Shown here piece by piece: positions 18,302 to 53,466 of a stretch of 64,000 nt of DNA. Source of the DNA: a virus; UHGV virus genome UHGV-1367859; one strand, given 5' to 3'. The notes under the pieces are model-generated. The model was not told where the DNA came from. It searched no databases and was given only the letters and a program-made list of their open reading frames with translations. Every line of letters begins with the position of its first letter. Position 1 is the first letter of the stretch. A program made the translations under genes and the position numbers.

Positions 18302-18373
18302 TGCCTCATGGTGTAATGGTTAGCACAGAGGACTCTAAATCCTTTGGTCTCTGTTCGAGCCAGAGTGGGGCGA
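18302..18373 (+). tRNA. amber-suppressor tRNA (anticodon CUA), Gln-like body
   Basis: Acceptor tgcctca/tggggcg, 7 of 7 paired counting GU pairs. D-arm gtg-taatggttag-cac is nearly identical to that of tRNA-Gln(UUG) at 14222. Anticodon stem gagga/tcctt, loop ctctaaa with U33, CTA at 18335-18337, and A37. T-arm ctctg-ttcgagc-cagag. Confidence 0.75.
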
Positions 18374-18706
18374 CTAACTTTAATCACAATGAATAAGGAA
18401 GCTTTAAAATGGTTTATGTCCAATGTAATGCTCTAGCTAGAGCAGATTGACAAAGAGGTAAGTAACTCACTGTTGCAGGATGAACAGTTTGTTCTTGATT
18501 TTTATGATAAATTAAATGAAATAAGTGTTAGAAAATAAAAAAAATATAATTATGGAACAGGTAAAGATACCACACCCTATTGCTAGGATGGTGCTAACAC
18601 AGACTAAAATTATTCTTAATAGCCCCAACAACCAAGACAAAGAGTGGCTCAAAACTTTTAAAGAAGAACTTAATAAACTTATTAATCCTGAGTAATCTTT
18701 AGGAAA

Positions 18707-25500: not shown

Positions 25501-26904
25501 TTTTCCCCCACAAAGGGTGAAGTAACAGTAACTAATATACCAGTTGATGAGTACATGCCTATATATAAGGTTAAATTAGCTGATGGCAGAATTGTAGAAG
25601 CTAGTAATAATCATATATGGCTAGTATATAAAGGAACTTCTAGAACTCCTATCGAAATTACTACAGAAGAAATGCTTAGGTCAGGGTTAATAACTAAACA
25701 CAAGCAACATAAGTTTTTTATACCTGAGCATAATGGGGTTGATTATAGTTATAAAGAATTGCTCATAGACCCCTATACTATGGGTTTATTGCTTTCTGAA
25801 GGGAGTCTAACAGGAGGTCATTGTGGCAAAAATTATGTACAGATGTCCTCTTCTAGGGAAGATATGGATTTCTACAAAAAGAATATCCCATATAGAGTTA
25901 ACTATATTGGTAACAAGGGGTACTCTTGGCATATTTATATTCCAGGATGTAGAGATATAATGACTAAATATGGGTTATATGGAGCTACAAGTCACACTAA
26001 GTTCATTCCAAATGAATATCTTTTCAGTAACTATGTTCAGAGAATGGAACTACTGAGGGGAATAATGGATGGAGATGGGTGTGCCAGAACTAGGGGGGCT
26101 AGTGTATTTATTACATGCTCACAGTCACTTGCAAATAATGTATTATCCTTAGCTAGAAGTTTAGGGATGAAAGCATGGCTTCAGACTCCTAAAGAAGGGG
26201 TATATAGAGTGTTGATATCTTCCATATATAAGATATTCAAACTCCCTAGGAAAGTAGTGGAGCAACATACTTATAAGCCTTATAGTAAAGGAAGTAGAGC
26301 CTCAGCTATATTAGGAAAGACTGCGATAGATAGTATTAAATATTCTCACATGGAAATGGGCAAATGTGTCACTGTAGACTCAGATGATGGACTATATATG
26401 ATAGGAGATTATGTAGTAACTCATAATTGTAATAAGAAAGGACTATATGCCTATTTCAATAAAATGAATTGCACACACCTACTGGCAGATACTCCTGAAT
26501 ATTTAAGAGACAAACAGATGATTAAGTATTCTGCCTTTGGCTCAAATGCAAAAGGTATCAATGCGAATGCTACTATCAACAATTATGCTAATAACCTGAT
26601 AAGGGATTGGCTACTTCAGCCAGTTCCAACTATAATAAAGGAGGATGGAGAAGAGAAAGAGGTCAATATTCCAAGGCTCTATTCTCTAAGAAATAGAGCA
26701 TTACTTGAAGAGTTAATTTCCTACACTCCTGAACTTAATGTGGATAGAATCAGGGCATTAGGTATGGTTATGCTGTATAGACAAGAGAAGATTATACTGT
26801 ATAGAGATAATCTTAATGCTAAGGCACAGGAGGAAGTCAGTAGTTCATACTTAGGCAATGATTCTTTCTTCCAAAGGAATTACTCCCAAGGGTATATACA
26901 GTAA
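22576..26904 (+). CDS. terL: terminase large subunit interrupted by two LAGLIDADG inteins; contains 3 in-frame TAG codons
   Basis: The track ORFs at 22576-24159, 24229-25269 and 25384-26904 are all in frame 1, separated only by TAG codons at 24157, 24211 and 25267. Intein hallmarks are C-VCAGTKVWTLDG ... LIGDGSYG ... LYDTDGSI ... VTHN|T, and C... LLSEGSL ... IMDGDGC ... VVTHN|C. The exteins carry a terminase ATPase/nuclease-like sequence. Confidence 0.65.
23557..24678 (+). mobile_element. intein 1 (Hint splicing domain plus LAGLIDADG homing endonuclease)
   Basis: Begins at a Cys (block A CVCAGTKVWTLDG) and ends at ...NIVTHN with +1 Thr. It has two LAGLIDADG-type motifs and contains two in-frame TAG codons. 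Confidence 0.55.
25411..26427 (+). mobile_element. intein 2 (Hint plus LAGLIDADG), N-terminal boundary approximate
   Basis: LLSEGSLTGG and GIMDGDGCA are LAGLIDADG motifs. The C-terminus is DYVVTHN with +1 Cys. The N-terminal Cys could be 25390 or 25411. Confidence 0.45.
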
Positions 26905-31109: not shown

Positions 31110-31152
31110 TGTAGATATGACTAAATAGGAAAAGGATGAACTATTTAATGAG

Positions 31153-32214
31153 TTGCTAGCTTTTCTCTCTAGGTCTTCAGTAAGTGTTGAAGACCTTCCA
31201 GAGGCTGGCAGCTTAGATGATGTGAATAGTTTTCCTGCATATAAGAAAGACTCTAAGGAGCTGGTAACCATTCCTTCTAGTGCTCTTAAAGAAGCTTCAA
31301 ATAAAGCTGATGCAGCTGCTCAGTCTGCACTTAGTGCATCTTAGCAATGTATGATTGCTGGAGCTAATGCTAACAATGCTGTATAGAGAGTCAACTAGAC
31401 CTTGAATTCTTTGCCTGGTTAGGTAGAAACACTGGTTAATAATTCTACTAGTGCACAGTCTAATGTAAATTCTAGAATTATTAATTTCTATACAAGTAGA
31501 CCTTCTTCTAATGCACTTGAATTAGAAATAACTGTATCAGAAAATGATTATAGAACTTTTGAATAGCTTCTGGAAGAAGAGTATGACTATGCTGATAGTT
31601 ATGACCATAGACCAATAATATTTACAGTTCTACAGAATAATGGTGTACCTAAGTATAGGAAGATTGTTTATGACAATAACCTTAGGGATAGTTAGAACTA
31701 TATTGACTATGACTTAAGTGGACTTCATGAGAGAATAGATACTCTTGACAGTAGGGTTCCTTATGATGCAGGAATAATAGAACTAGATTTAGTAAGTCAA
31801 GGAGAAACAACTTCCAAACAGGAAACTTTATTGCCTTCTAATAAAAATTATTTCAAATTTATAGAGATACTAGAATAGAGGGATAATAGGACTGTGCTAT
31901 GTACTATTGTCCCATCTAAAACTTAGGTAGGAAGTCCTTATACTGGTTTCAGATTCTTATGTTCTCTTCATAAGGATGGCTATGACTGGTCTATTCTTAC
32001 AGGTAAATATATTGATGTTGGTGAGGATGCAATAAACATTTATTATCTTTGTATTAAATGTTATAAGCCAACTTTTGGAGTAGGTGATGGGATGAGTATA
32101 TTAAAGTATCCTATTAAACAAGTAACTATTAGGCTTACTGAAGGTGAAGGAGATGGTCATTGTACAGAATTGTAGGAGATTAAAGCAACTGAAATAGTTG
32201 AAAAAATGATATAA
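31153..32214 (+). CDS. amber-recoded structural (tail-fibre-like) protein
   Basis: 353 codons with about 10 in-frame TAG and no TAA/TGA until 32212-32214. Confidence 0.5.
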
Positions 32215-32237: not shown

Positions 32238-33295
32238 ATGGAAATTGAATATTTAGGAAAAAGCTCTTTTAATAAAATATAGAACTAGCTTCAGCTTCTT
32301 AATTCCTATAGTGAATGGAAAGACATCACTGAAGAGTGTGTTCATATTGGATATAAAGTTAATCCACAGATAGTTCCTTAGGATTTGCAAGAAGGTAATG
32401 ACATTTTTGTGGAAGATGAAAATAGTATTGCAATAAATGCTGTAAGCCTCTTATCAGAGGATGCTACTTGGTGTGGTGACTTGAACGTTGCGTATAACTT
32501 TAAAATATTAATTTAGCCTAAAGCTTCTTCTAGCTCTGACATGGGTTTAATTGCTCAAACTATCTTAAGTAAGGATTTTGTTGGAAAAACCCTCGTAGTA
32601 AAAGCTGCTAATATTGGAGAGGAAGTGGAAGAGGATTACTCCATATAGGACATAACAGTTAGTGAAGTTTTAGAAAATGGACTTACATATAAATAGAGGG
32701 AGAGCAGGTTTTTCAATGAGAAGGAGCAATTTGTGGCAAGCCTAATGGTAAGTTAGGCAGTAGTATCTTTCCATTATAACCAGGAATATAAATACAAGGT
32801 AGTTTACAAAGACTCTGTCTTTACAACGCCAGCCGACTTTGTAAATAAAATGGTATATGGAGACGCTCCTTTTAGTATGATTGGTTAGAAGCTCTCCTCC
32901 GCAACTTTCAGTGATGATACCGATTAGATAAGGACCCTCTGGCCATAGGGTTGGGCCTCTTTTATAGTTGTTCCAGTATATGAAGGCGAGCCGAATGGTA
33001 ATGTTAAGTCAGGTCTAAGAGTTGAATATTATAGTGGTGATAACACTAAACATGAAACTATAGTGGACAATACATCATACCAGTCTATATATGGTTAGAC
33101 TGATTATCTTATTATACCAAAAGTAAAAGGAGCTACCTAGTCAGACTACCTAGTTATAGGTAGGATTGACTCAGCTTTTAAACCAGTGGGAGTTGAAATC
33201 TATGAGATGACTGCTCCTTATAGATAGATTGTCGATAGGGTAAGTGATGTAGACTATAGAATCAGAGAATTAGAAAAGTAGCTGAATGCTACATA
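32238..33295 (+). CDS. amber-recoded structural (tail-fibre-like) protein
   Basis: About 352 codons with about 15 in-frame TAG, terminating at TAA. Confidence 0.45.
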
Positions 33296-33317
33296 AATAT
33301 AATATTTTTTTTTCTAA

Positions 33318-39359: not shown

Positions 39360-40874
39360 ATGGCTGGAAAACTGAATAAGTTCCAAATGATTGGCTTTTC
39401 TCACTGGAAAGGTCTGACAAAGGACAACCACCTTGGTCAAATCTTCCAGCTTGCTCCACAGAAGGCAACTAACCTAATGGTACAGCTATTAGCTTGGTAT
39501 AGAGGTAAGACTCTTGATACCTTCCTAAGCCAGTTCCCTACAAAAGAGTTTGAAGATGACTCAGAATATTACTGGGATGTAATTGGCTCTACCAGAAGGA
39601 ACATTCCTCTGCTTGAAGCAAGAGATGAGAATGGCAATGTAGTAACCGCAACAACTGTTGCCAATGTGGGTGTTGGTACAGCTGTATTTGAGCTTGTCTT
39701 CCCTGAAGACTGGTTTGCTGATGGTGAAGTAATTGTAGGTAATCTGAATGAAGTATATCCCATGAGGATTCTTGGTAATCCGAGAATGGAAGGTACTAAT
39801 GCAGTTTACAAGGTAGAGCTAATGGGTGGAATAACCCAAGGTATTCCTGCTGAGAGACTCCTTCCAGGAGAAAGATTCAGCTATGAATATGCTCCTGTAG
39901 AAAGAGCACTTTCAAGGAAAGTTGGTGATGTTAGATTCACTTCTCCCGTATCTATGAGAAATGAATGGTCTACCATCAGAATCCAACATAAGGTACCTGG
40001 CAATATGCTCAACAAGAAACTTGCATGTGGTATTCCTGTAACAAAGGAAACTCCTACAGGTTACACTAAGTCTGTGGTTAACATGTGGATGCACTATGTT
40101 GACTGGGAAGTTGAACAGACATTCTCTGAATACAAGAATAACATTCTTGCTTTTGGTAGAAGCAATAGAAACAACAATGGAGAGTATCTGAACTTTGGTA
40201 AGTCAGGTGAAGTTATCAAGATGGGTGCTGGTCTGTTTGAACAAATGGAAGTAGCAAATACCCAATACTACAACAAGTTCAGTCTGAAACTTCTTGAAGA
40301 TGCTCTGTATGAACTGTCTGCATCCAAGCTTGACTTTGGTGACAGGTACTTCGTCATTAAGACAGGTGAAAGAGGTGCTATACAATTCCATAAGGCTGTA
40401 CTTCAGACTGTAAGTGGATGGACTCAGTTCACACTTAATGGTGATGCTCTGAATGTTGTTGAGAAGACACAAAGTACTCTTCATACTAATGCTCTTGCAG
40501 CTGGCTTCCAGTTTGTAGAGTACAGGGCACCTAATGGTGTAAGAGTGAAGCTTGATGTTGACCCATACTATGATGACCCAATAAGAAACAAGGTACAACA
40601 CCCTGATGGTGGACCTGCCTTCTCTTACAGGTATGACATCATGTACATTGGTACTATGGACCAGCCCAATATCTTCAAGTGTAAGATTAAGGGACAAGAT
40701 GAGTTCAGAGGTTATCAATGGGGATTGAGAAATCCTTTCACAGGTCAGCTTGGTAATCAATTCATGTCATATGATGAAGATTCAGCTACCTTCCATAGGA
40801 TGGCTACTCTTGGTATTTGTGTTCTTGACCCAACTAGAACAATGTCACTTATCCCTGCTATACTACAGGGCTAA
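39360..40874 (+). CDS. major capsid protein candidate
   Basis: 504 aa with no TAG. It follows the scaffold-like gene and is followed by a very strong terminator. The assignment is by context only. Confidence 0.45.
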   Translation: MAGKLNKFQMIGFSHWKGLTKDNHLGQIFQLAPQKATNLMVQLLAWYRGKTLDTFLSQFPTKEFEDDSEYYWDVIGSTRRNIPLLEARDENGNVVTATTVANVGVGTAVFELVFPEDWFADGEVIVGNLNEVYPMRILGNPRMEGTNAVYKVELMGGITQGIPAERLLPGERFSYEYAPVERALSRKVGDVRFTSPVSMRNEWSTIRIQHKVPGNMLNKKLACGIPVTKETPTGYTKSVVNMWMHYVDWEVEQTFSEYKNNILAFGRSNRNNNGEYLNFGKSGEVIKMGAGLFEQMEVANTQYYNKFSLKLLEDALYELSASKLDFGDRYFVIKTGERGAIQFHKAVLQTVSGWTQFTLNGDALNVVEKTQSTLHTNALAAGFQFVEYRAPNGVRVKLDVDPYYDDPIRNKVQHPDGGPAFSYRYDIMYIGTMDQPNIFKCKIKGQDEFRGYQWGLRNPFTGQLGNQFMSYDEDSATFHRMATLGICVLDPTRTMSLIPAILQG

Positions 40875-40875
40875 A

Positions 40876-40920
40876 CAAAATAAGGGGGAGAGAGCAATTC
40901 TCTCTTCCCCTTTCTTTAAC
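40876..40920 (+). terminator. rho-independent terminator
   Basis: Hairpin gggggagagag-caat-tctctcttcccc followed by tttcttt. Confidence 0.65.
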
Positions 40921-40936: not shown

Positions 40937-41464
40937 ATGGCAAAGAAAAATATGGAAGAAATAGATGTAGCTCAGATTGACCTATCTGATGAGTTGCCTC
41001 TACAAGAGGTGCCAAAAGTTGTTCCTATAGTTGAGGAACAGCCCGCAAGAAGAGCACCAAAGCAGCTAATAAACTGCTTAAGAAATGAAAGAATCATTGT
41101 GAGACATATACCCAAGCTTGGTGGTATGATTACTAATCCCAAACATATACTCTATGGAGGTATGGCCGAGAATGCTACCAAGACATTTACAGTACCTAGG
41201 TTAAGCTCAGGTATGTACGTGAATGTACTGACAGATGATGAAAAGGCTTTCCTTGAACATATCATGAGACTTGAGGTAAATGCTCTATCTATCTATAGAA
41301 AAACAGATAACTTCTGGGATGACACAAATGATAAGGGTATCTCAAGGGTAAGACTTACCAAGCAAGATAATTATTTTAATCTGGCAGACCCAGAAGATTA
41401 TATCAGATATAAGATTCTTCTAGCTAATAAGAACTATATTGCTCCCTCACTTGAGGCACTATAG
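40937..41464 (+). CDS. hypothetical structural protein
   Basis: 175-aa ORF. Confidence 0.45.
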   Translation: MAKKNMEEIDVAQIDLSDELPLQEVPKVVPIVEEQPARRAPKQLINCLRNERIIVRHIPKLGGMITNPKHILYGGMAENATKTFTVPRLSSGMYVNVLTDDEKAFLEHIMRLEVNALSIYRKTDNFWDDTNDKGISRVRLTKQDNYFNLADPEDYIRYKILLANKNYIAPSLEAL

Positions 41465-41536
41465 GATGCTCCCAAGGCAAGCTATCAGTTTGTAATCATT
41501 TCTGAAGGTGATGAAACTAAGAATGCTAAGGTTAAC

Positions 41537-41932
41537 ATGAGTACTACAATGAAGTGCTATAAGGAGTTTGGTAAGATAGAGGAAGATGCAGATACACTGA
41601 GAGTCATCATTGAAACTATTGATGGTAGACCCCTTGCTTCTACATCTAAGCTTGAGTTCTTACAGACCAAGGCTAATGACCTTATCCAAGCAGATAGTAA
41701 AATCTTCCTTAGAGCTATTACAGACCCAATGCTTCCTACCAAAGTCCTTATTAGGAAAGCTATTGAAGCAGGTCTTATCTCTAATAGAGGAAATTATCTA
41801 TATCTAAGGAGTGATAATGCCCCATTATGTGAAGCTAATGAAGAACCTACACTCAACATAGCAGCTAAGTATCTTAATAATCCCAAGCATCAAGAAATTA
41901 AATTTTCTCTTGAGGCTAAGTTAAGGCAGTAA
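41537..41932 (+). CDS. hypothetical structural protein
   Basis: 131-aa ORF. Confidence 0.45.
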   Translation: MSTTMKCYKEFGKIEEDADTLRVIIETIDGRPLASTSKLEFLQTKANDLIQADSKIFLRAITDPMLPTKVLIRKAIEAGLISNRGNYLYLRSDNAPLCEANEEPTLNIAAKYLNNPKHQEIKFSLEAKLRQ

Positions 41933-41950: not shown

Positions 41951-42745
41951 ATGTCGCAAATTGAAAACCTTATGACTGCGGAAGAAAGAAGAATAAGAAA
42001 TTAGGAATTTAGTAATGAGTTTGATATAATTTACAACAGCATTACAAGTAATCAGGCTCCTGGTTTGGATGAATATGAGAAGTCTGTATTTCTAACTAAG
42101 GCTCAAGATGAAGTAGTAAAAGCTTATTTTAGTCCAAAAACTAATAAGTCTCAAGAAGGTTTTGACGGAAGTGAGATAAGGTAGATTGATTTCTCTATGC
42201 TCGTGGGAGACCGTACAATAGCAGATGCAGACTCTTTTTTAGATGCACACTTTGGCAATAGAAAAAGCAGTAAAAGTATCATCCTTCAAGATGATATATT
42301 CATGTTTATCAACGAGTATGTTACAGTTTAGAGAGGTAATAACGAAACTAGATTAACTGTTATCCCTATTAGTTACTTGGAGTATAATAGACTCACTAGC
42401 AAACCTTACAAATATCCTCTAAAAAACCAAGCTTGGAGATTGCTTATTTCTGACAGTAATAGAAAGAAAGTTGAATTAATTTTAGGATATTAGGATTCCT
42501 TAATTAGTTATACCTATAGATTTGTTAGACGTCCTAAAGCTATTAGACTAAGTACATTTGACGGTCTTACTATAGGAGGTGAGAGTAGTGAGGAATGTTG
42601 TGAGCTTGACCCAATACTATTTCCAGAGATTATTCAAAGAGCTTGTGAGCTAGCTAAGGCTGCTTATATTGGAGACCTTACTTCACAGGTTGCTCTTGGT
42701 CAGACATCACAGACTAATATGGGTATTGTAACTCAAAGTAGATAA
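41951..42745 (+). CDS. amber-recoded paralogue of the downstream gene (4 in-frame TAG)
   Basis: 264 codons. The N-terminal EFSNEFD...DEYEKSVFLTKAQDEVV aligns with EEFSNEFD...DEYEKSMFLTKAQESIV of the ORF at 42748-43443. It ends with TAA. Confidence 0.5.
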
Positions 42746-42747
42746 TT

Positions 42748-43443
42748 ATGACAAATGAAGAGTTCTCAAATGAATTTGACAGCTTAGTCAACAGCAACTC
42801 TATCATCAAGCCATTTGGTGTAGACTCTATGCCATTGGAATTTGATGAATATGAAAAGTCAATGTTCCTTACAAAGGCACAGGAGAGTATAGTGATAGCA
42901 CTCTACAATGGAAACCTTATAGGAGATTCATTTGAGAAAACAGAGGAACTTAGAAGGTACTTAAGTGGCCTAGTAAAGGATTACCCTGCTACTGAATATG
43001 TAAGAGGTAATAGCCTGACAGGTGACTCTTATATCTTTAACCTTCCTGAGGATGTTTGGTTTATAACCTATGAAGCTGTAACATCAGATGATGAGAAACT
43101 AGGTTGTGCTAAAGGTTCCATTATGGAAGTAGTTCCTGTATCTCAAGATGAACTTCATAAAACAAGAAGCAATCCATTTAGAATGCCTAACAAGAGGAGG
43201 GTATTAAGGCTTGATGTGGAAGACAATAAGGTAGAACTTATCTCTGCATTTACTATAAGTAAATATCAAATTAGATACTTATCAAAGCCAGACCCCATAA
43301 TCCTTGTAGACCTGCCTGATGGACTGACAATAAATAAATTATCAAAAGCAACTAAATGCAAATTAAACCCTGCAATACACAGAGTAATACTAGAAATGGC
43401 AGTTAGCCTTGCCTTGAAGAGTAGAACCAGTGCAGGTAAGTAA
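42748..43443 (+). CDS. structural protein; standard-code paralogue of 41951-42745
   Basis: 231-aa intact ORF without TAG. Confidence 0.5.
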   Translation: MTNEEFSNEFDSLVNSNSIIKPFGVDSMPLEFDEYEKSMFLTKAQESIVIALYNGNLIGDSFEKTEELRRYLSGLVKDYPATEYVRGNSLTGDSYIFNLPEDVWFITYEAVTSDDEKLGCAKGSIMEVVPVSQDELHKTRSNPFRMPNKRRVLRLDVEDNKVELISAFTISKYQIRYLSKPDPIILVDLPDGLTINKLSKATKCKLNPAIHRVILEMAVSLALKSRTSAGK

Positions 43444-43461
43444 AACTTAATAAAATAAATT

Positions 43462-44505
43462 ATGGTATTTTCAACTAACCAAGTAAGACAACTTTATGTA
43501 GTCACAGCAGTACAGGGTGCTGCAAAGGGGACAGATGGTAAGGTGAGTGAATCAGATGCTGCTGGTACCATTGCTCTCAAGGCTGATGCTGAAGGTAAGA
43601 ACCTGTTCTTCCAGTATAAGGGGGCTGATAACCTTATGAGGAGTGACCTCATCAACATAGACAATATTCTCTATGCCAAGGCTGTAAGTGCAGAGGCTGC
43701 TACTCAGAAGTATGCACTCAAGCAGGCTGTAGTTAAACTTGATGCTACTGTAAATGGTGGTGCTCCTATTGGAGGTCAGGATTACATCCTTAGAATCTGC
43801 ATCAATCCTTATATAGGCATGTCTGATGAGGGACCCTATTATAAGTATGGTGCTGTACATGCTACAAGAAACATGACTGCTGCTCAGTTCTATACTAAGC
43901 TTGCAGCTTCTCTCTACAAGAACTTCAGCAGAGAACTTAGCAAGATGCTTGAGTTCACTATAGCTGGAAAGGTTGTAGGAAGGGTAAAGACAGATGTCAA
44001 TGGGGAAGAAACTCTGATTGATACTACTGGAGCAGCTATTACTGTAGCTGAGGACTATGAGGATGGTGTTACTATCACAGAGGTAGAACAGGAATGGACT
44101 CGTGGTATCAAGGAGCAGTCTGAGGTTAATTTCACAGTTACTCCTACTACAGTAACCTTTGATGGTGAAGAAGTTAAGTGGGGTACAGTGACAGTAAGTG
44201 ACTCTGCTAAGGTAAGAAACAATGGCAGAATGATTGCAGACCTTGAGTACTTCTGCATGGGTGAAAGAGGTGACCAATACAGAGATATTGGATGGCCTAA
44301 TAGCATTCCAACCAAGTATCTTATTGACAACCCTGATACTGCATACAATGTCCTTGAAATCCACTATGCTTATGTAGGTTCTAATGAAGGACCACAAAGG
44401 TCAGAGAAGGATATCACTATTGTATGTGCTGACAAGGCACAGCTAAACAAGCTCATTGGTCAGTTTGCTGAAGCCTCTAAGGTACAGGTTGCAGAACTAG
44501 CCTAA
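43462..44505 (+). CDS. abundant virion structural protein candidate
   Basis: 347 aa, followed by a strong terminator. No TAG. Confidence 0.45.
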   Translation: MVFSTNQVRQLYVVTAVQGAAKGTDGKVSESDAAGTIALKADAEGKNLFFQYKGADNLMRSDLINIDNILYAKAVSAEAATQKYALKQAVVKLDATVNGGAPIGGQDYILRICINPYIGMSDEGPYYKYGAVHATRNMTAAQFYTKLAASLYKNFSRELSKMLEFTIAGKVVGRVKTDVNGEETLIDTTGAAITVAEDYEDGVTITEVEQEWTRGIKEQSEVNFTVTPTTVTFDGEEVKWGTVTVSDSAKVRNNGRMIADLEYFCMGERGDQYRDIGWPNSIPTKYLIDNPDTAYNVLEIHYAYVGSNEGPQRSEKDITIVCADKAQLNKLIGQFAEASKVQVAELA

Positions 44506-44507
44506 TC

Positions 44508-44546
44508 ATAAGGGAGGTCAAAAGCCTCCCTTTTTTATTTTATACA
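44508..44546 (+). terminator. rho-independent terminator
   Basis: Hairpin gggaggtcaaaagcctccc followed by ttttttatttt. Confidence 0.65.
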
Positions 44547-44548
44547 CT

Positions 44549-45064
44549 ATGATAAAGTATAATAAGCTACAGATAGATGGTAACAAGCTCATAATAGACT
44601 TTGAGATAGAAGACAAGCCCTATTATGACAGTTTAAGTATAGAGGGTGTAAGAGTTGATACCCCTCTTACTTATGGAACTGACACTCCATACTTTCTTTA
44701 CGATGAAGATGATGTAACCCAATATACTACAGAAATCTTCATTCCAGATGCCAAGAAAGAACTTCTTATCATCACTCCTATAGTCTATATCTCTCTCCCC
44801 CCTGATACTCCTTGTGGAGCTGATGTTATTGATATGGCTGCCATTTATGATAGAAATATCTTGATAGATAAGGGGCTTGGATACCTTAAAGAGCTTGGGG
44901 ATACCTGTGAAATATCAAGGGGCTTTGTTGATTTCATACTTAACAGATATGCTCTTGATATGGCTATAGCTACTTGCAACTATAGTACTGCTATTAAGTA
45001 CTGGAAGATGCTCACAATGGTAAAAGGAACAACTCTAAAAGGATGTGGATGCAATGGAAGATAA
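44549..45064 (+). CDS. hypothetical protein
   Basis: 171-aa ORF. Confidence 0.4.
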   Translation: MIKYNKLQIDGNKLIIDFEIEDKPYYDSLSIEGVRVDTPLTYGTDTPYFLYDEDDVTQYTTEIFIPDAKKELLIITPIVYISLPPDTPCGADVIDMAAIYDRNILIDKGLGYLKELGDTCEISRGFVDFILNRYALDMAIATCNYSTAIKYWKMLTMVKGTTLKGCGCNGR

Positions 45065-45290
45065 TAAGCTATATGAAACACTCAACAGATACTTCAAGAG
45101 GTTATCTCAGGTGGGTTATATTGCTGATAGTGACACATTCTCTGTTCTAGTACTGACTTACATTACAGAGTTGAAGAAAGAACCCTCACTAACTACTGAA
45201 CAGAAGTATATTATAGAGAGAGCACTTTCTTGTCTACAAGGAAGCTGCCTCATTCCTTATGATTCATGTAAAGGAACTTGTATACAGTAA
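45045..45290 (+). CDS. hypothetical protein
   Basis: 81-aa ORF. Confidence 0.3.
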   Translation: MDAMEDNKLYETLNRYFKRLSQVGYIADSDTFSVLVLTYITELKKEPSLTTEQKYIIERALSCLQGSCLIPYDSCKGTCIQ

Positions 45291-45345: not shown

Positions 45346-46035
45346 CTAAATATAATCTTAGTGCAAAGGTAAGCATTTTTAGTATGGTTAGAGGAATTAT
45401 ATACAGATATTTATCTCCTAGTGGGAAGTCTTATATTGGACAAACTACTAATGAGAAACTAAGACGAAGAAGTTGGATGTCTGATAAATACCACTATGCT
45501 GGAGCTAAAATAGATAGAGCCAGAGCCAAGTATGGTAGTAGCTCATTCTTATATGAAGTATTATATATCTAAGAAGCTCGCAATAGAGGACCTAAATAGA
45601 TTAGAAATATACTACATAGGGCTTTATGATTCATATAGGAATGGTTATAATTGTACTATAGGTGGGGATGGAGTCCAAGGATTCAATATGAGTGTTTCTC
45701 AAAAAGAGCATCTCAGGGAATGTAATCTAGGAAAGAAATTATCTGCATCTACGAAGAGAAAGATAGGAATTGCTTCTAGAAGATGGCAAAATACTCCAAT
45801 TAATAGAGGAAGGATGTCCTCTATAAGAAAAGGCAGAAAAAATCCGAATGCAATAGCAGCAATGACCTTAGCTAAAGAGAGACCTATATTGCAGTTCACA
45901 ATGTCTGGTGAGTTTATTAGAGAGTTCCCCAGTATTAAGGCAGCTTATGAGTTTCTTGGTAAAGAAGGTAACATAACAAGTGTGTGTAAAGGTAGAAGAG
46001 CCTCTGCCTTTGGCTATGTATGGAAGTATAAATAA
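45330..46035 (+). pseudogene. GIY-YIG homing endonuclease split by a frameshift
   Basis: ORF 45330-45572 carries IYRYLSPSGKSYIGQT (GIY-YIG). ORF 45532-46035, in another frame, carries YNCTIGGDG plus NUMOD-like repeats. Together they make one GIY-YIG protein interrupted by a +1/-1 shift. Confidence 0.5.
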
Positions 46036-46786
46036 ATCAAAAAAAAGAAAAATAAATATGACATATAGAGAAATTGCTTACATGTGTCTAGATTCTTTGA
46101 AAGTAGTATCTGATGACTCATACATAACATTGGAGCATGTCCTATTTCTAATATCAAAGTTAAGAGCTTTAATACTGAAGCAAAGATATTCTGATATAAA
46201 GAAAGAGATACCCCAAAGTAACTACCAAACTATCTGTTTAGACCTTATACAAGTACCTGCTATTGCAGGAGAACCTTGTGAGGGTGGTACATATCTTAGG
46301 AGTGAAAAGAAAGTGCCTTCAACTATGTCTATAGGTACAAACACAGTGTATCCTGTAGACTTCTATCAAGGTACCCATATTACTTATGTAAGTAGGGAAA
46401 GAATGAGATATGTGGGTGAAAATAAATGGCTTAAGAATATTATCTATGTATCGAAAGGCCCAGATGATTACCTATATTTCAAGTCAAGTAACCCCCAGTT
46501 CCTATACCTTGAAAAGGTAAGAATGACAGGCATCTTTGAAGACCCTGACAAAGCAGCAGAACTTGAGTGTGACTCAGGTGATAAGAAATGTGATGTACTA
46601 GACAGGGAGTTCCCTCTTGAAGAAGGACTTGCATCTACACTGATTGAACTTGTAGTCAAGTATCTCTCTGGTGCAGTGTATAGGGGAAAAGATACTGCCA
46701 ACAATGCTTCAGATGATTTGTCGGATATAGCAACATTTATTAGAAGAAATATGAAGGGTAATTTTCAAAAGCAATTAGAGGAGTAA
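45980..46786 (+). CDS. hypothetical protein
   Basis: 268-aa ORF. Confidence 0.4.
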   Translation: MCVKVEEPLPLAMYGSINKSKKRKINMTYREIAYMCLDSLKVVSDDSYITLEHVLFLISKLRALILKQRYSDIKKEIPQSNYQTICLDLIQVPAIAGEPCEGGTYLRSEKKVPSTMSIGTNTVYPVDFYQGTHITYVSRERMRYVGENKWLKNIIYVSKGPDDYLYFKSSNPQFLYLEKVRMTGIFEDPDKAAELECDSGDKKCDVLDREFPLEEGLASTLIELVVKYLSGAVYRGKDTANNASDDLSDIATFIRRNMKGNFQKQLEE

Positions 46787-46787
46787 G

Positions 46788-47495
46788 ATGAAAGAATATT
46801 GTTTATATAAACATACCACCCCATCAGGCAAAGTATACATAGGTATAACCAGCCAAGACCCACTTCACAGATGGAACAATGGTAAGGGTTACTTTAACTG
46901 CAAGAACTCTCCCTTCAAAAATAGTATAATAAAGTATGGATGGGACAATATAACGCATGAAATACTTTATACTGGAATGACAGAACAAGAAGCTATAAGT
47001 AAGGAGAAACAATATATAGCCTATTATAAAAACTTAGGGGTCAGTCTTAATATAACAGATGGGGGAGAAGGATGCACAGGGGTTACTCCTTGGAACAAGG
47101 GTATTAAAGTTCCTTATGAAAAATCCAATAAGAGAAGGGGATGTACTCTTACAGAATCTCATAAGAAGAAGTTGAGTATAGCCCATAGAGGAAAATCATC
47201 TAGAGGTTCTGGATGGAAAATGAGTGAGAAACAAAAGGAATGTCTTAGACAAGTAAATCTTGGTAGGAAAAGACCTATGTGTGAAAGGTTGAAAATATCT
47301 GAGAACTCACCAATGTCTAAGATTGTACAAATGCTTGATAGGGAGGGAGAAGTACTAGCTGTGTACAAATCAGCTACAGAAGCAGCCTTAGCTCTAGGAG
47401 TAGATAAATCATGGTTAAGTAAGTGTTGCAGGACTGGTAAGCTTTGCAGAGGATACAAGTTCAAATATGGAGGAGTTCAGAAAGAAGGTACTTAA
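46788..47495 (+). CDS. GIY-YIG homing endonuclease
   Basis: LYKHTTPSGKVYIGIT ... NITDGGEG with C-terminal NUMOD-like repeats. Confidence 0.75.
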   Translation: MKEYCLYKHTTPSGKVYIGITSQDPLHRWNNGKGYFNCKNSPFKNSIIKYGWDNITHEILYTGMTEQEAISKEKQYIAYYKNLGVSLNITDGGEGCTGVTPWNKGIKVPYEKSNKRRGCTLTESHKKKLSIAHRGKSSRGSGWKMSEKQKECLRQVNLGRKRPMCERLKISENSPMSKIVQMLDREGEVLAVYKSATEAALALGVDKSWLSKCCRTGKLCRGYKFKYGGVQKEGT

Positions 47496-47991
47496 AGTAA
47501 GTGAGTCAAGAGTCTATAGAGTGAATAACTCATATGGAGTATATGATGCCTACAAGTATATCAGAAAGAACAAGTGGTTTGATATAGGACAACCTGTCAC
47601 AGAGCATCAGTTCTACTCCATTATAAGAAGAATGAATAACCTCCTTGCTGATACACTCATACATGGACATGACATAGAACTGCCATGCAGGATGGGTACC
47701 ATAGAGGTAAGGAAGTATGATGCAAGAGTCTCAATTGAAGATGGCAAGGTTAAGACAAACCTTCCTATAGATTGGGACAGAACACTTAAACTATGGTCAG
47801 AAGATGAGGAAGCCTATAAGGAAAGAACACTCATTAAAATGGAGGAAAAAGAAATCTTCAAGGTCTACTATAACAGGATTGATGCAGACTACAACAATAA
47901 ATCCCTCTATGAATTTGTAGTGAACAGAGACCTTAAAAGGAGATTGAAGCAAAGAATTAAAAGTGGTAACTTTGATGCTTTTAAGATATGA
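47467..47991 (+). CDS. hypothetical protein
   Basis: 174-aa ORF. Confidence 0.4.
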   Translation: MEEFRKKVLKVSESRVYRVNNSYGVYDAYKYIRKNKWFDIGQPVTEHQFYSIIRRMNNLLADTLIHGHDIELPCRMGTIEVRKYDARVSIEDGKVKTNLPIDWDRTLKLWSEDEEAYKERTLIKMEEKEIFKVYYNRIDADYNNKSLYEFVVNRDLKRRLKQRIKSGNFDAFKI

Positions 47992-48686
47992 CAAAATATA
48001 TAAGCATAAGACAAGTTCTTGATAACCTGATGGATAATCCCTTGCTACAAGATTTATCTTTAGAAAGGGCAGTCAATTATGCTGTCAGGTTCATACAGAA
48101 GGTAGGTATGCCCTCAATATTCCTTGAGAAAACAGAGAAGGTTGAGATAGAGAATTATAGAGGTAAGCTACCTTGCGACTTCTATGAAATGATACAGGTA
48201 AGAGCAGTTGGTCATAACTGTAATGGAGTACTTCATGAAGTATTCAGATACTCTACTGATTCATTTCATATGAGTCCTGATAAGACAAGAGATAATGACC
48301 TTACCTATAAACTACAGGGAAGTTGTATTTTTACTTCTATGAAGGAAGGAACTATAGAAGTAGCTTATAGAGCTTTCTCGACAGATGAAGAAGGATTCCC
48401 TCTCATACCAGAGAATGGTTCTTTTGAGGAAGCACTTGAGCTATTTATAAAGGTAAAACATTTTACAGTTCAGTTTGAGCTTGGTAGGATAACTCAACAG
48501 GTTCTGCAACACGCAGAACAACAATATGCTTGGGCAGTGGGTCAAGCTCAGTCTGACCTTGTTAGGCCCTCTATTGACCAACTCCAATCTTTCACTAATT
48601 CTTGGAATACTTTAATCTCCAGGACTAATGAGCATAGCAAAGGGTTTAAAACTCTTGGTTCTAAGGAGTATATCAAACTTCATTAA
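47988..48686 (+). CDS. hypothetical structural protein
   Basis: 232-aa ORF. Confidence 0.45.
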   Translation: MTKYISIRQVLDNLMDNPLLQDLSLERAVNYAVRFIQKVGMPSIFLEKTEKVEIENYRGKLPCDFYEMIQVRAVGHNCNGVLHEVFRYSTDSFHMSPDKTRDNDLTYKLQGSCIFTSMKEGTIEVAYRAFSTDEEGFPLIPENGSFEEALELFIKVKHFTVQFELGRITQQVLQHAEQQYAWAVGQAQSDLVRPSIDQLQSFTNSWNTLISRTNEHSKGFKTLGSKEYIKLH

Positions 48687-48696
48687 TTATATTAAC

Positions 48697-51600
48697 ATGA
48701 TGTATTCAGATAATCATATATTTAAAGGCCTAAGGAGAGATGTTCACCCATCAAGACAAGATGAGTCTTTTTTATGGGATGCTTTAAATGTGAGACTTAC
48801 TAATAGGGATAGTGATACTGGGTTTTCTATCACTAATGAGAAGGGAAATACGGACACTGGTGTTGTTTTTGATGGGTAGTACGTAGGACATTGTGTGCTT
48901 AATAGATACTTAGTAGTATTTACTGTAAGTTAGAATGACACTCAGGAAGTATCTAGAATATATAGACTCCATGAAGATAAAGGGGAGTGGATTAAAGTTA
49001 CTCTATTTGAAGGAGTGCTAGGTCTTGATGCTAATCACCCTCTAGAAATATTAGGGGATAGTGAGTCAGTTCTTGTGAATAAGTTGTATTGGACAGATGG
49101 AATTAACCAGCCTAGAGTTATTAATATAACTGCCCCAGAGTTGAAACTTCCTGAAGATATAGCTAGTAAAGTTATAGTAGACGGAGTTAATTTCTCAAAT
49201 CCATAGAAAAGTGAGGGAGTTTCCTAGGAAGTTATAGAAAATCTAGAAAAGTGGTATGAAAAAGGAAATTGGATATACAGAGCTGAGTCTCCATTTGATT
49301 TTGTATAGAACCTATAGTTAAAAGAAAGAGTACTGGTAGGTAGAAGTTCCAGTCATGGAGAATTTTCTCCTGGAGTAATTCAATATGCTCTTACATACTT
49401 TAATAAGTATGGGCAAGAAAGTAACATATTCTATGTATCTCCCATATAGTATATAAGGAATTATGATAGAGCTGGTAATCCAGAAGAGAAGGTTATAACT
49501 TCTTTCACAATTAAAGTAGAAAATGTTGATAACTTTGATTATATAAGGGTTTATTCTATACATAGAACTTCACTAGACGCATAGCCTACAGTTAAGATTG
49601 TAGCTGACTTAGACTTAAAAGATTGCTAGGAGGAAAGTGCTGAAGGAGAATACTGGTATGATGTGTTTGGTTCTGAGGATTAGCTGGTAAAAACAATTGA
49701 ATATACAGATACTGGTCTTACTGGTTCAATAGAAGACCCTGCTAAACTATTATATACTGGGGGACAAACAATATTAGCTGGAACTATCACTAGCAAAGAA
49801 GGAGTGATGTTTTATGGAAACATTACTGTTCAGAAAAATACTAAAGAACTAACTACATTACTTCAATAGGAAGAGGCTGAAAATGGGGACTCTTTAGGGT
49901 TAACAGATTGTTTTTTAGCCGAAGATACTTATGATAATTAGGGTATAAATAAATACTATCCTTATCTACCATAGTTTAAGCCTGGTCATTTTAAGGCAGG
50001 AGAAACATATAGATTAGGAGTTCAATTTTAGTTTAAGACTGGAGAATGGTCAGAACCTATTCCATTAAACAAAGTCATAAGGAATAGTGATGGTGATGGT
50101 GATGGTTTTCTTGATGTAGAGTTAAATAATTCATATTCTTGGGGCACTATTGACGGGGTGGATACTAAGGAACTTTAGTTATTCCCTAATGCAACTGCCT
50201 CATTATTAAAAGCTGGAGTAAGAAGGGCTAGAACTTGTGTTGTTTTCCCTAAGCCAGCGGAGAGAAATATTATATGTTAGGGAGTTTTAAATCCTACTGT
50301 CTACAGTGTGAGAGGAAGGCACATGAATAACCCATATGCAATGTCATCTTGGTTCTTTAGGCCATCTCCTGTATATGTAGATGGAAAGCCAAAAGAAACC
50401 TCTACCTCGATAGATTAGGGGTCGACTATTTAGTATAAACATAATTATACACTTTTCAGTGGAGGTAATAGAAGTGCTGAAATATAGTCATCTCTGCCAG
50501 GAGATTCCAATAAGTCAATATAGGAAATTATTTCTCCCTCTGATGGTATAAAGTCTCATTATTCAACTTTTGCTGTTGATAGTAACTTAGTTACTTTACA
50601 TTCCCCAGAAATTGAGTATGGGTCCTATATAAATACTACTCAATTAGAAGGAGCAAGGCTAAATATTGTTGGAGCCGCTAGCCTACATGGATTGTATGGA
50701 GATATAGATTTAGCAGTGACCTCTAAAGCTAGTTCTCAGGCTGGAGGATTTATACATCATCCTGTAGGATTTCCAGTGAACTGTACTACTCCTAATACTA
50801 CTGTTAATGGAGGATTTGTATCATCATGTTGTTTTGAAGATAAAATACTAAGAGGGGATTTTTTAGATGAGGATAGGACAGGTATTGTTAAATATTTAGT
50901 TTATCCTTGGCATAGAACAGGCTCACTAAATAATGATATTGTCAGGTCTCCTGAGATTATAGAGAAATCCGGAAGTGATAGAACAGCTATACTAAAATGG
51001 AAGATTATTTCCAATTTAAAGTATTTTGAAAGTAAGTCAACTTTTTTTAACTCTAATAACCACAATATTAAAATTACAACTCCTAAGTTATTCTCTTCTA
51101 AAGAGGTTACAGGCTTAACTGTTCGTGTTCCACATTTAGACTAGGATGTACTATACTTTGGAAATGTAGATGATATTGTATCAGCCACATCAGATTATCC
51201 TATTTATGCTGGTACTGATGATAGTATTTCACAAGTATCCCCTACTAATGTATCTACTTCTGGGGAGTCAGTAAGAATGAAGTATAAATCATCTCCTCAC
51301 TTAGTATTCTCTTTATATGATGAGGATAACCCTAAGGTTATTCCAGTACTACCATACACTTCTGTTACTGGTGAGACTATAACTTCATAGTATACCCCCT
51401 CTGGATGGGAGAATAATACTTCTACCAGTACTTCATATCCTATCCTTTCATTTATAGGCTCAAAAACCTTTTATGGGACTTATAACAAAGAGGGGAACTT
51501 AGTACTAGATGTTGACGATACAAGTGTGACTGCTCTAGGAACCTATCAGATTGTAATGGCTTACATTGGATCCATAGCTAAGCGTGTATTGGTTAAAAGG

Positions 51601-53466
51601 GTAAAGATAGGAGAAGCAGGGTATTGGCAGGTACAAAACTCAGGAACTAAAGTGACTGTTTTAGTGAAGAAAGGATGTATAATCTATCATCACTATGTAA
51701 ATGGTGAGTGGGTAGGAGTTCTTCAGAATGCGGGGCCAATAAAATGGGGTCCTTTTGAAAACTTACAGGATGGTCATGATAACTTTTAGTATCTTGGGGA
51801 TTAGGTATTATTAAACTTAAAGGTATCTCTCGGAAATATAGTTGGTATTACATCTTATAAAATGTATTCAGAGCCATCTACAGATAATACAGATAATACA
51901 GATAATACAGATAATACGTTTACCATCCAGAATAGCACTCTGTAGTTACTTGAAGAGGATAAAGATTATTCCCCCACATTACCTATAGCTGAATTAACAT
52001 AGTGGGTTGACCCAGACACTAGGTTTGGAGGTAAATCGGATGAAGCTATCAAAAATAACTTATGGGTTCCAAGTAGTGAGTCAGTTCCTCTTGTATCAAC
52101 TCCACATAAGATAATTACGATTCCTTATGCCTATGGGGATACATGGTGTACAAGATATGATTGTGTAAAGACTTATCCTTTTGCAGATGATGATACTAAT
52201 TAGATAGTAGAAATAGGTTCATTTATGCTTGAGTCACATATTAATCTTGATGGAAGATACGATACTAAAAGAGGGCAGCTATCCAACTTCGACATTACTC
52301 CTGACTCTTATAAGATAAATGAAGTATACTCTTAGTTAGATAACTTCTTTAACTACAGAACACTAGACAAGGACTATTATAAAATAGATACATTTCCTTA
52401 CTAGGTAGCATGGTCCTTAAAGAAAAATCCCTAGTCTATAATTGACCCATGGACTAATGTCACTTTAGCTAGTACCTTAGACCTTCCTGCTGATAAAGGG
52501 TCTGTAACATGTCTAACCTCCATCAATGATACTCTTATTGGCTTCTAGGAAAAATCTATTAGCTAGATTATGTTTAATTCTAGAGTATAGCTCAATCCTA
52601 CAGACGGAGTACCTATTGAGATAGGAAATTCAAACAGAGTAGATGGGTTCAGGATTCTATCCTCTACTATTGGATGTGCTAATAAATGGTCTATTATTCC
52701 TACCTCAACAGGTCTATTCTTCATAGATAACGAGTCCAAAAGTATTTATAGATATGGTTAGGAATTAGTAAATGTAAGTGAGCTTTCAGGAATGAGTTAG
52801 TGGGTTAAGAATGATGTTGACTTATCAGAGTGGACTCCTACAGGAATGGGAGTAAGAAGCTTTGTTGATAATATGAATGGGGATGTATATTTCTCTCCAG
52901 CTCATGGCGAAGAAGCTTTATGTTTCTCAACTAAGCTTAACTAGTTCACTTCCTTTTTAAGTTATGGTGAAACTGAAGGTATGTTTGACTTTGAAGGTGG
53001 TTTTTACTCTATAAAATAGGAATAGGATAAAGTTAGGCTATGGGAGAACTTCACTGGGGTATATAATGAGTTCTATGGTAACTTTAAACCATTTAGTTTC
53101 ACTTATATATCTAATGGTAATTCTCCTTACACAAAAATTTTTGACACAGTGGAAGTTAATGCTGAAGTACGGAACTTTGGCCAAAAGGATAATTCTGATA
53201 AGCCATTTGATTTTATCCAAGCAGAGAATGACTATTAGAAAGCTTATACTGACCTCACTAATAGTAGAGATATAAGGAAGAAGTTTAATATATGGAGGAT
53301 TAATATTCCTAGGTCTCCTTATGTAGCACAAGATGGTAAAGATGTTATAAGGCACTATGGTAGGGCAAGGATTAGAAATCCATGGAGTGAAATAACTCTA
53401 GGGAGTGCCTCACATAAAAACTAGAGAGTGACAATATATAATGTATCTACTAAGTACTCTATGTAA
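48697..53466 (+). CDS. giant tail-fibre/tailspike-like protein, about 1,590 codons with about 50 in-frame TAG codons
   Basis: Frame 1 stays open from ATGATG at 48697 to TAA at 53464-53466 with no TAA/TGA. It absorbs the track ORFs 48628-48879, 49015-49206, 50692-51144 and 51526-51789, which are all in this frame. It carries DNT and DG repeats and is followed by a terminator. Confidence 0.6.
51888..51923 (+). repeat. 4 tandem copies of a 9-bp repeat (gataataca) inside the tail-fibre gene
   Basis: gataatacagataatacagataatacagataatacg encodes (DNT)4. Confidence 0.6.

Follow-up and report, generated by a model that had tools for sequence, protein, structure and literature searches.

Tandem tail-barrel ring genes in a TAG-recoded crassvirus: four in-frame TAG codons in R4/5 and none in the Gln-poor R3

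The DNA analysed here, called the window in the following, is a stretch of 64,000 nucleotides of the virus genome UHGV-1367859. All features described below are located on the + strand. A block of structural genes appears in the order major capsid protein (MCP), gp33, ring protein 4/5 (R4/5), ring protein 3 (R3) and auxiliary capsid protein (AuxCP). The MCP gene (39360..40874) matches PF23898 with E=2.8e-219 and contains no in-frame TAG. It is followed by a gp33-like gene (40937..41932), which lies directly upstream of R4/5 in conserved synteny and has one in-frame TAG at 41462. R4/5 is encoded by ORF A (41951..42745; 264 aa), which starts with the ATG at 41951 and stops with the TAA at 42743-42745, and R3 by ORF B (42748..43443; 231 aa). 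At the A/B junction (42743..42750), the TAA of R4/5 and the ATG of R3 are separated by a spacer of 2 nt (TT). The AuxCP gene (43462..44505; PF25650, E=5.8e-109; no TAG) is positioned directly downstream of R3. Further on, the window encodes the paralogous tail-barrel ring protein 2 (R2; 46016..46786; PF25702, E=7.5e-66) and ring protein 1 (R1; 47988..48686; PF24228, E=4.4e-71), both free of TAG, and the muzzle protein (48628..53466; PF25731, E=3.4e-236, and PF25729), whose gene holds 40 in-frame TAGs. In addition, ARAGORN detected an amber suppressor tRNA with the anticodon CTA in the phage tRNA array (18302..18374).

A consensus scan revealed terminator-like hairpins 3' of the MCP gene (40882..40912; a 13-bp stem followed by a T-rich tail) and 3' of the AuxCP gene (44510..44532; a 9-bp stem followed by TTTTATTTT), and no site of this kind between ORF A and ORF B. 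These hairpins bound a putative gp33-R4/5-R3-AuxCP transcription unit, in which R4/5 and R3 are probably co-transcribed. Due to the short stop-start spacing, translation of R3 may be coupled to the completion of R4/5. A scan for sigma-70 promoters, using a consensus that is unsuited to Bacteroidota-type promoters, showed no excess over shuffled sequences (16 sites compared to 11.6±3.2).

Both ORFs were assigned to the Pfam family PF25710 (CrAss_Ring_3_4) and pass the curated Pfam threshold of 27 bits over their full length. The match covers residues 16-239 of 264 in ORF A (E=2e-51, 174.9 bits) and residues 1-228 of 231 in ORF B (E=8.8e-89, 297.1 bits). Comparison with the solved chains of ΦcrAss001 resolved the two members of the pair: ORF A matched 'Ring protein 4/5 gp34' (PDB 7qoj_E; E=3.4e-60, 207 bits) and scored well below that against gp35 (E=8.6e-17, 65 bits), and ORF B matched 'Ring protein 3 gp35' (PDB 7qoj_D; E=4.3e-69, 235 bits) and scored well below that against gp34 (E=6.6e-23, 84 bits). 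By this one-to-one orthology of the sequences, A to gp34 and B to gp35, the two products are the crassvirus tail-barrel rings R4/5 and R3, which are distinct subunits and not isoforms. Neither ORF was matched in a search of PHROGs. A megablast search against GenBank phages gave no match for the ring genes, with partial matches of 74-76% in DAC15/DAC17 and cr85/cr128 for the MCP and gp33 regions.

The relationship between the two ORFs was analysed by BLASTP with TAG read as Q. Residues 15-235 of ORF A align with residues 1-222 of ORF B at 32% identity (E=6e-24), and judged by this alignment the paralogy is far beyond chance. An initial annotation of the locus had described a duplicated structural gene in tandem with similar N-termini. 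The two ORFs, their TAG counts of four and zero and the N-terminal motifs were all found again in the sequence, and the similarity is even larger in extent than described, as it does not end within the N-terminal 40 residues but spans the whole length of the proteins. Of the 118 distinct loci compared in relatives, 110 also keep the tandem arrangement: 100 show the order R4/5-then-R3, and 10 more carry an extra paralogue in the middle. R4/5 and R3 form an anciently diverged paralogue pair.

In ΦcrAss001, ring 5 binds to the muzzle. The tail barrel of this phage consists of five stacked dodecameric rings, and its R3 and R4 are 30.6% identical (PMC10172136). Within the virion, gp35 (R3) accounts for a single ring and gp34 (R4/5) for two, located between R1/R2 and the muzzle (PMC10172136); the structures of gp34 and gp35 are available as PDB 7QOJ, 7QOK, 7QOL and 8CKB (Bayfield et al., Nature 2023, PMC10172136). 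A single R3/R4 homologue suffices in many crassviruses (PMC10172136). Based on orthology to ΦcrAss001, we infer corresponding ring positions and copy numbers of 24:12 for R4/5 and R3 in the phage studied here. [quoted passage not shown]

The four in-frame TAGs of ORF A are located at 42002-42004, 42182-42184, 42329-42331 and 42491-42493, corresponding to residues 18, 78, 127 and 181. Scanning of the reading frame yielded zero TAA or TGA stops and zero frameshifts, so that every interruption is a TAG, and with the standard code the ORF is split into five fragments of 17-83 aa. In ORF B, no in-frame TAG is present. More generally, long ORFs in this low-GC DNA (37%) do not terminate with TAG, and full-length homology is restored across the TAGs for R4/5, portal, muzzle, cargo 1 and gp33. 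Among the tRNAs of the window, the closest one to tRNA(CTA) is the phage tRNA-Gln(TTG), with a near-identical D-arm. An alignment of orthologues showed 42% Q in the TAG columns, which is a 9.7-fold enrichment. For residue 78 of R4/5, 92 of 98 orthologues have Q and the remaining 6 have TAG; this residue, residue 176 of gp33 and residues 701 and 790 of the portal correspond to CAG in standard-code relatives. The tRNA(CTA) is present in a twin genome (L178) and missing at the syntenic site in four standard-code loci (L179-L182). On the strength of these sequence features, the phage is a TAG-to-Gln recoded (code 15) lineage with its own tRNA(CTA). Such late-gene recoding together with a suppressor tRNA is known in crAss-like phages (PMC7886860; bioRxiv 10.1101/2021.08.26.457843; PMC9523058), and metaproteomics shows Gln at TAG in other members of this group (PMC9523058). 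It was also observed that the recoded lineage falls within a group of standard-code relatives that have no suppressor tRNA.

The initial annotation had emphasized that only one copy of the pair requires the suppressor. The count of four versus zero is real, but statistically unremarkable. Relative to the Gln codons (4 TAG and 11 CAR in ORF A, 0 TAG and 3 CAR in ORF B), Fisher's test resulted in p=1.0, and relative to all codons in p=0.13. Under pooled late-gene rates, the probability that ORF B has no TAG is 0.19-0.57, and 14 of 29 late genes are without TAG. Leaving the muzzle out of the pooled rate placed the four TAGs of ORF A mildly above expectation (P=0.037). ORF B has three Gln codons in all (2 CAA, 1 CAG), and R3 is without TAG because these offer hardly any site for a CAG-to-TAG change. 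Related loci show the same tendency: the median number of Gln-type codons is 4 in R3 and 11 in R4/5, and R3 has fewer than R4/5 in 94% of 109 pairs.

A comparison with eight other recoded lineages gave R4/5:R3 TAG counts of 7:7, 3:8, 9:4, 6:4, 1:4, 1:1, 4:1 and 0:2. R3 of the recoded relatives therefore carries 1-8 TAGs, and all TAGs counted in their ring genes were verified as internal. Counted per Gln codon, TAG is if anything more frequent in R3 than in R4/5. The near-twin genome L001/L167 shares the 4:0 pattern, which is not an independent case as its R4/5 matches that of the window with 99-100% nucleotide identity. ORFs in the census were defined with TAG as sense. Of the 32 loci counted as recoded on this basis, about 20 with a lone TAG in gp33 were rejected: this TAG is the genuine gp33 stop, and the loci belong to standard-code phages.

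TAG codons are also found in other virion genes, with 2 in the portal, 5 in the terminase, up to 14 in the fibres and the 40 of the muzzle, where they represent 65% of the Gln-type codons. TAG use is over-dispersed among the late genes (chi-square p=7e-26). Its placement is not purely random, and a gene-level cause exists, which is either history or selection. For the tandem pair itself, we consider it very probable that the two ORFs are the known R4/5 and R3 and that chance together with a Gln-poor R3 produced the 4-vs-0 contrast. Since many other virion genes need the suppressor, this contrast is without demonstrated regulatory meaning. In-frame TAGs are scattered unevenly over about half of the late genes, with four of them falling in R4/5. 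R4/5 and R3 would both be made late, as far as timing can be predicted, and both would be needed in every virion, while assembly of the whole virion would be suppressor-dependent through many other genes.

A second explanation, possible but in our view unlikely, interprets the asymmetry as the footprint of a mosaic history. R4/5, the muzzle and the fibres would long have resided in a recoded background, and the TAG-free R3-AuxCP-THA segment would have been exchanged recently with standard-code relatives. TAG-free genes can enter a recoded phage, whereas TAG-containing genes would be non-functional if moved out. In agreement with this idea, the window and its twin L167 share 99-100% nucleotide identity up to ~42700 (gp33, R4/5) and 79-92% from 42700 to 45100 (R3, AuxCP, THA), and this alignment places a recombination breakpoint at the A/B junction; dS between window and twin is 0.000 for R4/5 and 0.685 for R3. 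In comparison to the standard-code locus L170, dS is higher in R4/5 (2.66) and the muzzle (saturated) than in the TAG-free neighbours (0.33-1.3). Close relatives whose MCP is 98-99% identical lack the tRNA(CTA) as well as any in-frame TAG along ~42 kb, and the share of TAG among Gln codons has a bimodal distribution, with ~2% for the backbone genes and 27-67% for those that are divergent. However, R1, R2 and THA combine a dS of 1.0-1.3 with a complete lack of TAG, the Gln-poverty of R3 alone already accounts for its zero count, and the same pattern could arise if TAG were counter-selected in some genes. The nearest non-twin alleles of R4/5 are 60-66% identical, and the closest one is found in a standard-code phage. 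IMG/VR protein, profile, metagenome and muzzle scans aimed at a donor of the TAG-bearing R4/5 allele retrieved only the twin or distant relatives, and the import hypothesis is therefore not confirmed.

A wider form of the mosaic explanation, which we regard as rather doubtful, would extend it to the whole genome. Here, a standard-code backbone (MCP, AuxCP, R1-R3 and others) would be combined with a long-recoded distal-tail and host-range set (R4/5, muzzle, fibres, cargo 1) that is locked to tRNA(CTA). The R4/5-R3 junction would be one seam between the two parts, and the reassignment would let genes flow in one direction only, like a valve. The backbone genes share up to 99% amino acid identity with relatives lacking the suppressor. 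If the mosaic reading is true, TAG-free modules enter recoded phages and TAG-rich cassettes cannot leave without the tRNA.

Compared with the preferred reading of chance and a Gln-poor R3, the proposal of the initial annotation that the pair could serve as a built-in switch between two isoforms, or control their ratio, appears very improbable. According to this proposal, R3 would be made with every translation of the operon and R4/5 only with an active suppressor or in proportion to it, which would time or tune tail-barrel assembly. The 4:0 pattern in the window and its twin and the over-dispersion of TAG among late genes are consistent with such a mechanism, as is the published idea that TAG recoding delays the translation of late genes (bioRxiv 10.1101/2021.08.26.457843; PMC9523058). 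In contrast, the asymmetry is not significant given the Gln content and is absent or reversed in the eight other recoded lineages, and the orthologues of gp34 and gp35 are distinct ring subunits that are both required. Portal, terminase, muzzle, cargo and fibre genes also carry TAG, so that no virion would be formed without suppression and the pair cannot be a private switch. Moreover, the TAG-bearing R4/5 is the double-dose protein in ΦcrAss001; if TAGs cut the yield, the 24-copy protein would fall relative to the 12-copy one, contrary to what a ratio control would have to achieve. The 2-nt spacing suggests that R3 may itself depend on the completion of R4/5.

That ORF A is a decaying pseudogene and ORF B the sole functional ring 3/4 gene, as its fragmentation under the standard code and the sufficiency of one homologue in many crassviruses might suggest, is hardly credible for a gene that is interrupted only by TAG, matches Pfam over its full length, is intact in ~100 relatives, evolves under purifying selection (dN/dS 0.11-0.13, compared to 0.13-0.15 for R3), repeats the identical four TAGs in another genome with one of them at an invariant Gln, and resides in a genome which encodes a suppressor tRNA and carries TAG in the indispensable portal and muzzle genes as well. 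The same evidence supports the earlier view of an intact upstream copy that depends on amber suppression.

The observation as such is ordinary and already known: the ring paralogues were described in 2023 and have a Pfam family, and uneven TAG-to-Gln recoding has been published. It is useful for annotation, as gene callers working with the standard code would break up the R4/5 gene. The case further advises caution, as counts of recoded stops per gene should be normalised by Gln codons before any regulatory story is built on them. A recoded lineage among standard-code kin, with seams in its structural module, could be a handy natural system for the spread of a code change; nested situations of recoded and standard-code phages are of a known kind.

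The locus closely resembles that of ΦcrAss001. Both share the gp34-then-gp35 adjacency, with a paralogue identity of 32% here and 30.6% there, and both have MCP and gp33 upstream, AuxCP and the tail hub downstream and R2, R1 and the muzzle further on. The deposited gp34 and gp35 chains of ΦcrAss001 were aligned without needing any in-frame TAG; in contrast to gp34, R4/5 of the present phage has four TAG-encoded Gln residues and an N-terminal extension of 17 residues. In comparison to the putatively related head-to-tail adaptor or 'tail-joining' proteins of HK97, Mu and P22, crassviruses have multiplied the protein into 3-5 paralogous rings.

With regard to the genetic code, the phage behaves like other code-15 crAss-like phages, having a tRNA(CTA) in its array, TAG limited to some structural and late genes, a low GC content and close standard-code relatives. 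We see no difference in kind, and the R4/5-R3 contrast is a detail of the known uneven TAG distribution. A further parallel is provided by the Agate phages, in which standard-code and recoded genomes occur at >90% ANI (Borges et al., bioRxiv 10.1101/2021.08.26.457843). In both cases, a recoded lineage lies amid very close standard-code kin, structural genes are recoded and the suppressor tRNA tracks the code. The Agate phages, however, belong to another phage group and use TGA-to-Trp recoding, whereas the phage described here is a TAG-to-Gln crassvirus with a strongly mosaic dS between genes that ranges from 0.3 to saturated within one module.

The segment has a GC content of 37% and belongs to a crAss-like phage, in which the long structural module on the + strand is continuous only if TAG is read as a sense codon. 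Two ORFs lie there in tandem, separated by TAA-TT-ATG: ORF A (41951-42745, +, 264 codons, ending in TAA) and ORF B (42748-43443, +, 231 codons). ORF A contains exactly four in-frame TAGs, at residues 18, 78, 127 and 181 (nucleotides 42002, 42182, 42329 and 42491), and ORF B contains none, which confirms the initial annotation of two tandem paralogues with this TAG distribution. Using BLASTP with TAG translated as Q, residues 15-235 of A aligned with residues 1-222 of B (32% identity, E=6e-24). The similarity spans the whole protein, beyond the N-terminal 40 residues considered initially, and the paralogy is therefore real.

No PHROGs model was found for either ORF. In Pfam, both hit PF25710 (CrAss_Ring_3_4, phage tail ring protein 3/4), with E=2e-51 for A and E=8.8e-89 for B, and the matches cover nearly the entire length of each protein. 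Among PDB sequences, A matched the ΦcrAss001 'Ring protein 4/5 gp34' (7qoj_E) with E=3.4e-60 and gp35 with 8.6e-17, and B matched 'Ring protein 3 gp35' (7qoj_D) with E=4.3e-69 and gp34 with 6.6e-23. Both copies resemble their ΦcrAss001 orthologues far more than they resemble each other, indicating that the duplication is older than the divergence of these phages. The tail barrel of ΦcrAss001 consists of four paralogous proteins forming five stacked dodecameric rings, with R3 and R4 described as 'more recent paralogues' of 30.6% identity (PMC10172136). Because gp35 forms R3 and gp34 forms both R4 and R5 in that phage (PMC10172136), the products of A (R4/5) and B (R3) would occupy different ring positions rather than being isoforms.

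The ring-protein context is confirmed by the neighbouring genes, namely the major capsid protein (MCP, 39360-40874), a gp33-like gene (40937-41932), the auxiliary capsid protein (AuxCP, 43462-44505), tail hub A (THA, 44549-45064), ring 2 (R2, 46016-46786), ring 1 (R1, 47988-48686), the muzzle (48628-53466) and cargo 1 and cargo 2. Ring 2 is flanked by two homing-endonuclease-like ORFs (45496-46035, NUMOD1/I-HmuI-like; 46788-47495, GIY-YIG). Neither is present in the standard-code relatives L168, L170 and L171, and a near-twin recoded genome (the twin, IMGVR_UViG_3300045988_037736) carries a 37%-identical ORF in place of the first.

Three IMG/VR scans returned 166 loci with 118 distinct ring-gene signatures. 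R4/5 is followed by R3 in 100 of the 118, and the block MCP, gp33, R4/5, R3, AuxCP, THA is essentially invariant. In about 10 more signatures, a third tandem paralogue lies between the two (for example L003:3438-4382, L004:3819-4490 and L032:2477-3256; also L054, L055, L062 and L082). These middle paralogues constitute a separate orthologous group, sharing 37-57% identity with one another and 27-42% with the R4/5 or R3 encoded in their own genome, and may represent a ring protein specific to R4 or to R5. Genomes with a smaller set of ring genes are noted in the ΦcrAss001 paper; we found no mention of a five-gene state in it (PMC10172136).

Among close relatives, no gene of the head-proximal module diverges more than R4/5. 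The length of R4/5 ranges from ~243 to ~400 aa across loci by mid-protein insertions (L088, 329 aa; L044, 337 aa; L093, 375 aa; L154, 401 aa; 264 aa in the window), and R3 is steady at ~228-241 aa. The R4/5 of the window carries a 17-residue N-terminal extension, MSQIENLMTAEERRIRN (41951-42001), preceding (Q/S)EFSNEFD, the conserved start in most orthologues; the first TAG sits where many of them start (MTN-S/Q-EF). The extension is common to the closest relatives, whose alignments begin at residue 5.

Several lines of sequence evidence point to TAG being read as glutamine in this phage, in agreement with the published code-15 recoding in crAss-like phages. ARAGORN detected 23 tRNAs in the window, one of them with anticodon CTA (18302-18374); among the phage tRNAs, tRNA-Gln(TTG) resembles this suppressor most, and the D-arms of the two are almost the same. 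When 99 distinct R4/5 orthologues were aligned, the position of the residue-78 TAG was Q in 92 sequences and TAG in the other 6, and that of residue 18 was Q in 46. When every TAG of all recoded orthologues is considered, Q accounts for 42% of the matching positions in TAG-free sequences, a 9.7-fold enrichment. Close standard-code relatives have CAG, a single C-to-T change away from TAG, at R4/5 residue 78, gp33 residue 176, portal 701 and 790, and cargo 1 194 and 316. Apart from fragments of longer TAG-sense ORFs, no long ORF of the window ends in TAG. Direct proof of glutamine insertion at TAG comes from proteomics of other crAss-like members (PMC9523058).

The four-versus-zero asymmetry between the two genes is not meaningful. 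A has 15 Gln-type codons (4 TAG, 7 CAA, 4 CAG) and B only three (2 CAA, 1 CAG), and the genes do not differ in Fisher tests of TAG versus CAA+CAG (p=1.0) or per codon (p=0.13). At the pooled late-gene rate, the probability of B lacking TAG is 0.19 per codon and 0.57 per Gln codon, and 14 of 29 late genes have none. Low glutamine content characterizes R3 across the family: among 109 distinct pairs, R3 has a median of 4 Gln-type codons and R4/5 one of 11, with R3 lower in 94%. Other recoded lineages have R4/5:R3 numbers of internal TAGs of 7:7, 3:8, 9:4, 6:4, 1:4, 1:1, 4:1 and 0:2 (all TAGs counted in the ring genes checked are internal), and TAG per Gln codon is if anything higher in R3 (35:44 versus 35:110, some near-duplicate loci being pooled). 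The 4:0 pattern recurs only in the twin, which is not an independent case because its R4/5 has 99-100% nucleotide identity.

As a complementary explanation, TAG content could partly reflect the time that an allele has spent in a recoded background, a possibility we consider rather doubtful. TAG use is strongly over-dispersed across late genes (chi-square p=7e-26), indicating gene-level structure, and the TAG fraction is bimodal, reaching 59% and 67% in the fibre-like genes 31117-32214 and 32238-33296. Per-gene dS against the standard-code relative L170 is a mosaic with the TAG-rich genes at the deep end: 0.32-0.40 for MCP, AuxCP and two others, 0.65 for gp33, 0.85 for R3, 1.0-1.3 for THA, R2, R1 and cargo 1, 2.66 for R4/5 and saturation for the muzzle, which is only 36-39% identical to that of relatives with 99% identical MCP. 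Identity to the twin is 99-100% through gp33 and R4/5 and drops at a sharp recombination breakpoint, the A/B junction (~42,700), to 79-92% through R3, AuxCP and THA (to ~45100); in R1 and the muzzle it is again about 100%. Together with the twin dS (R4/5 0.000; R3 0.685), this indicates different recombination histories of R4/5 and R3, which is compatible with the residence-time explanation. However, neither IMG/VR nor the metagenome collection holds a closer R4/5 or muzzle allele, R1, R2 and THA are TAG-free although fairly diverged, and Gln-poverty alone explains the absence of TAG from R3. A mosaic 'one-way valve', in which TAG-free modules enter recoded phages but TAG-rich cassettes cannot leave without tRNA(CTA), is likewise unproven.

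The proposed isoform switch or ratio control between the copies is not supported, since the asymmetry is neither significant nor conserved and many other genes need suppression: portal (2 TAG), cargo 1 (6), gp33 (1), the muzzle (40, or 65% of its Gln-type codons), an intein-bearing terminase-like gene (5) and four fibre-like genes (1, 3, 10 and 14). Thus, the two genes cannot form a switch of their own. On the assumption of a ΦcrAss001-like architecture, 24 copies of R4/5 are required against 12 of R3, and a TAG penalty would therefore hit the wrong partner for ratio control. Terminator-like hairpins flank the block (40882-40912 and 44510-44532), and the 2-nt stop-start spacing with no terminator-like site between A and B suggests translation from one mRNA, possibly coupled, a further point against ratio control. 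What stands of the proposal is the duplication of a structural gene with a suppressor-dependent, functional upstream copy; both genes are intact throughout the related loci and under purifying selection (dN/dS 0.11-0.15 against close relatives), which excludes a pseudogene, one of the refuting cases named in the initial annotation.

The closest non-twin relatives (contigs …042591, …049815, …031323 and …025205) share 98-99% MCP and 89-95% portal protein identity with the window. Their tRNA arrays (L179-L182) have the same order, except that no tRNA(CTA) separates tRNA-Leu(tag) from tRNA-Thr(tgt), and their homologous late genes contain no in-frame TAG over about 42 kb. The window phage and its twin therefore represent a recoded lineage that lies within a group of standard-code phages. 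The terminase-like ORF (22411-26904, 1497 aa) is interrupted by two inteins (Intein_splicing and LAGLIDADG_3, ~residues 404-756; Hom_end, ~1208-1262), and of the five TAGs in this ORF, those at residues 583 and 597 fall within the first intein; L181 (1082 aa) has one intein, and L179 and L182 (about 750-765 aa aligned) have none. The gp33 orthologue ends in a genuine TAG stop in L046, L059, L079, L095, L132 and about 15 similar loci, aligning exactly with a CAG (Gln) that is followed by TAA in the window; with ORFs called with TAG as sense, the gp33 stop of these about 20 standard-code loci appears as a false in-frame TAG.

Taken together, the tandem genes encode the ring proteins R4/5 and R3 in a crassvirus with TAG recoded to Gln; the pair is a previously described and structurally solved feature. 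Both the ring pair and the recoding were already known from the literature and from Pfam and PDB entries, and Borges et al. (bioRxiv 10.1101/2021.08.26.457843) have reported recoded lineages nested among standard-code relatives in other phages.
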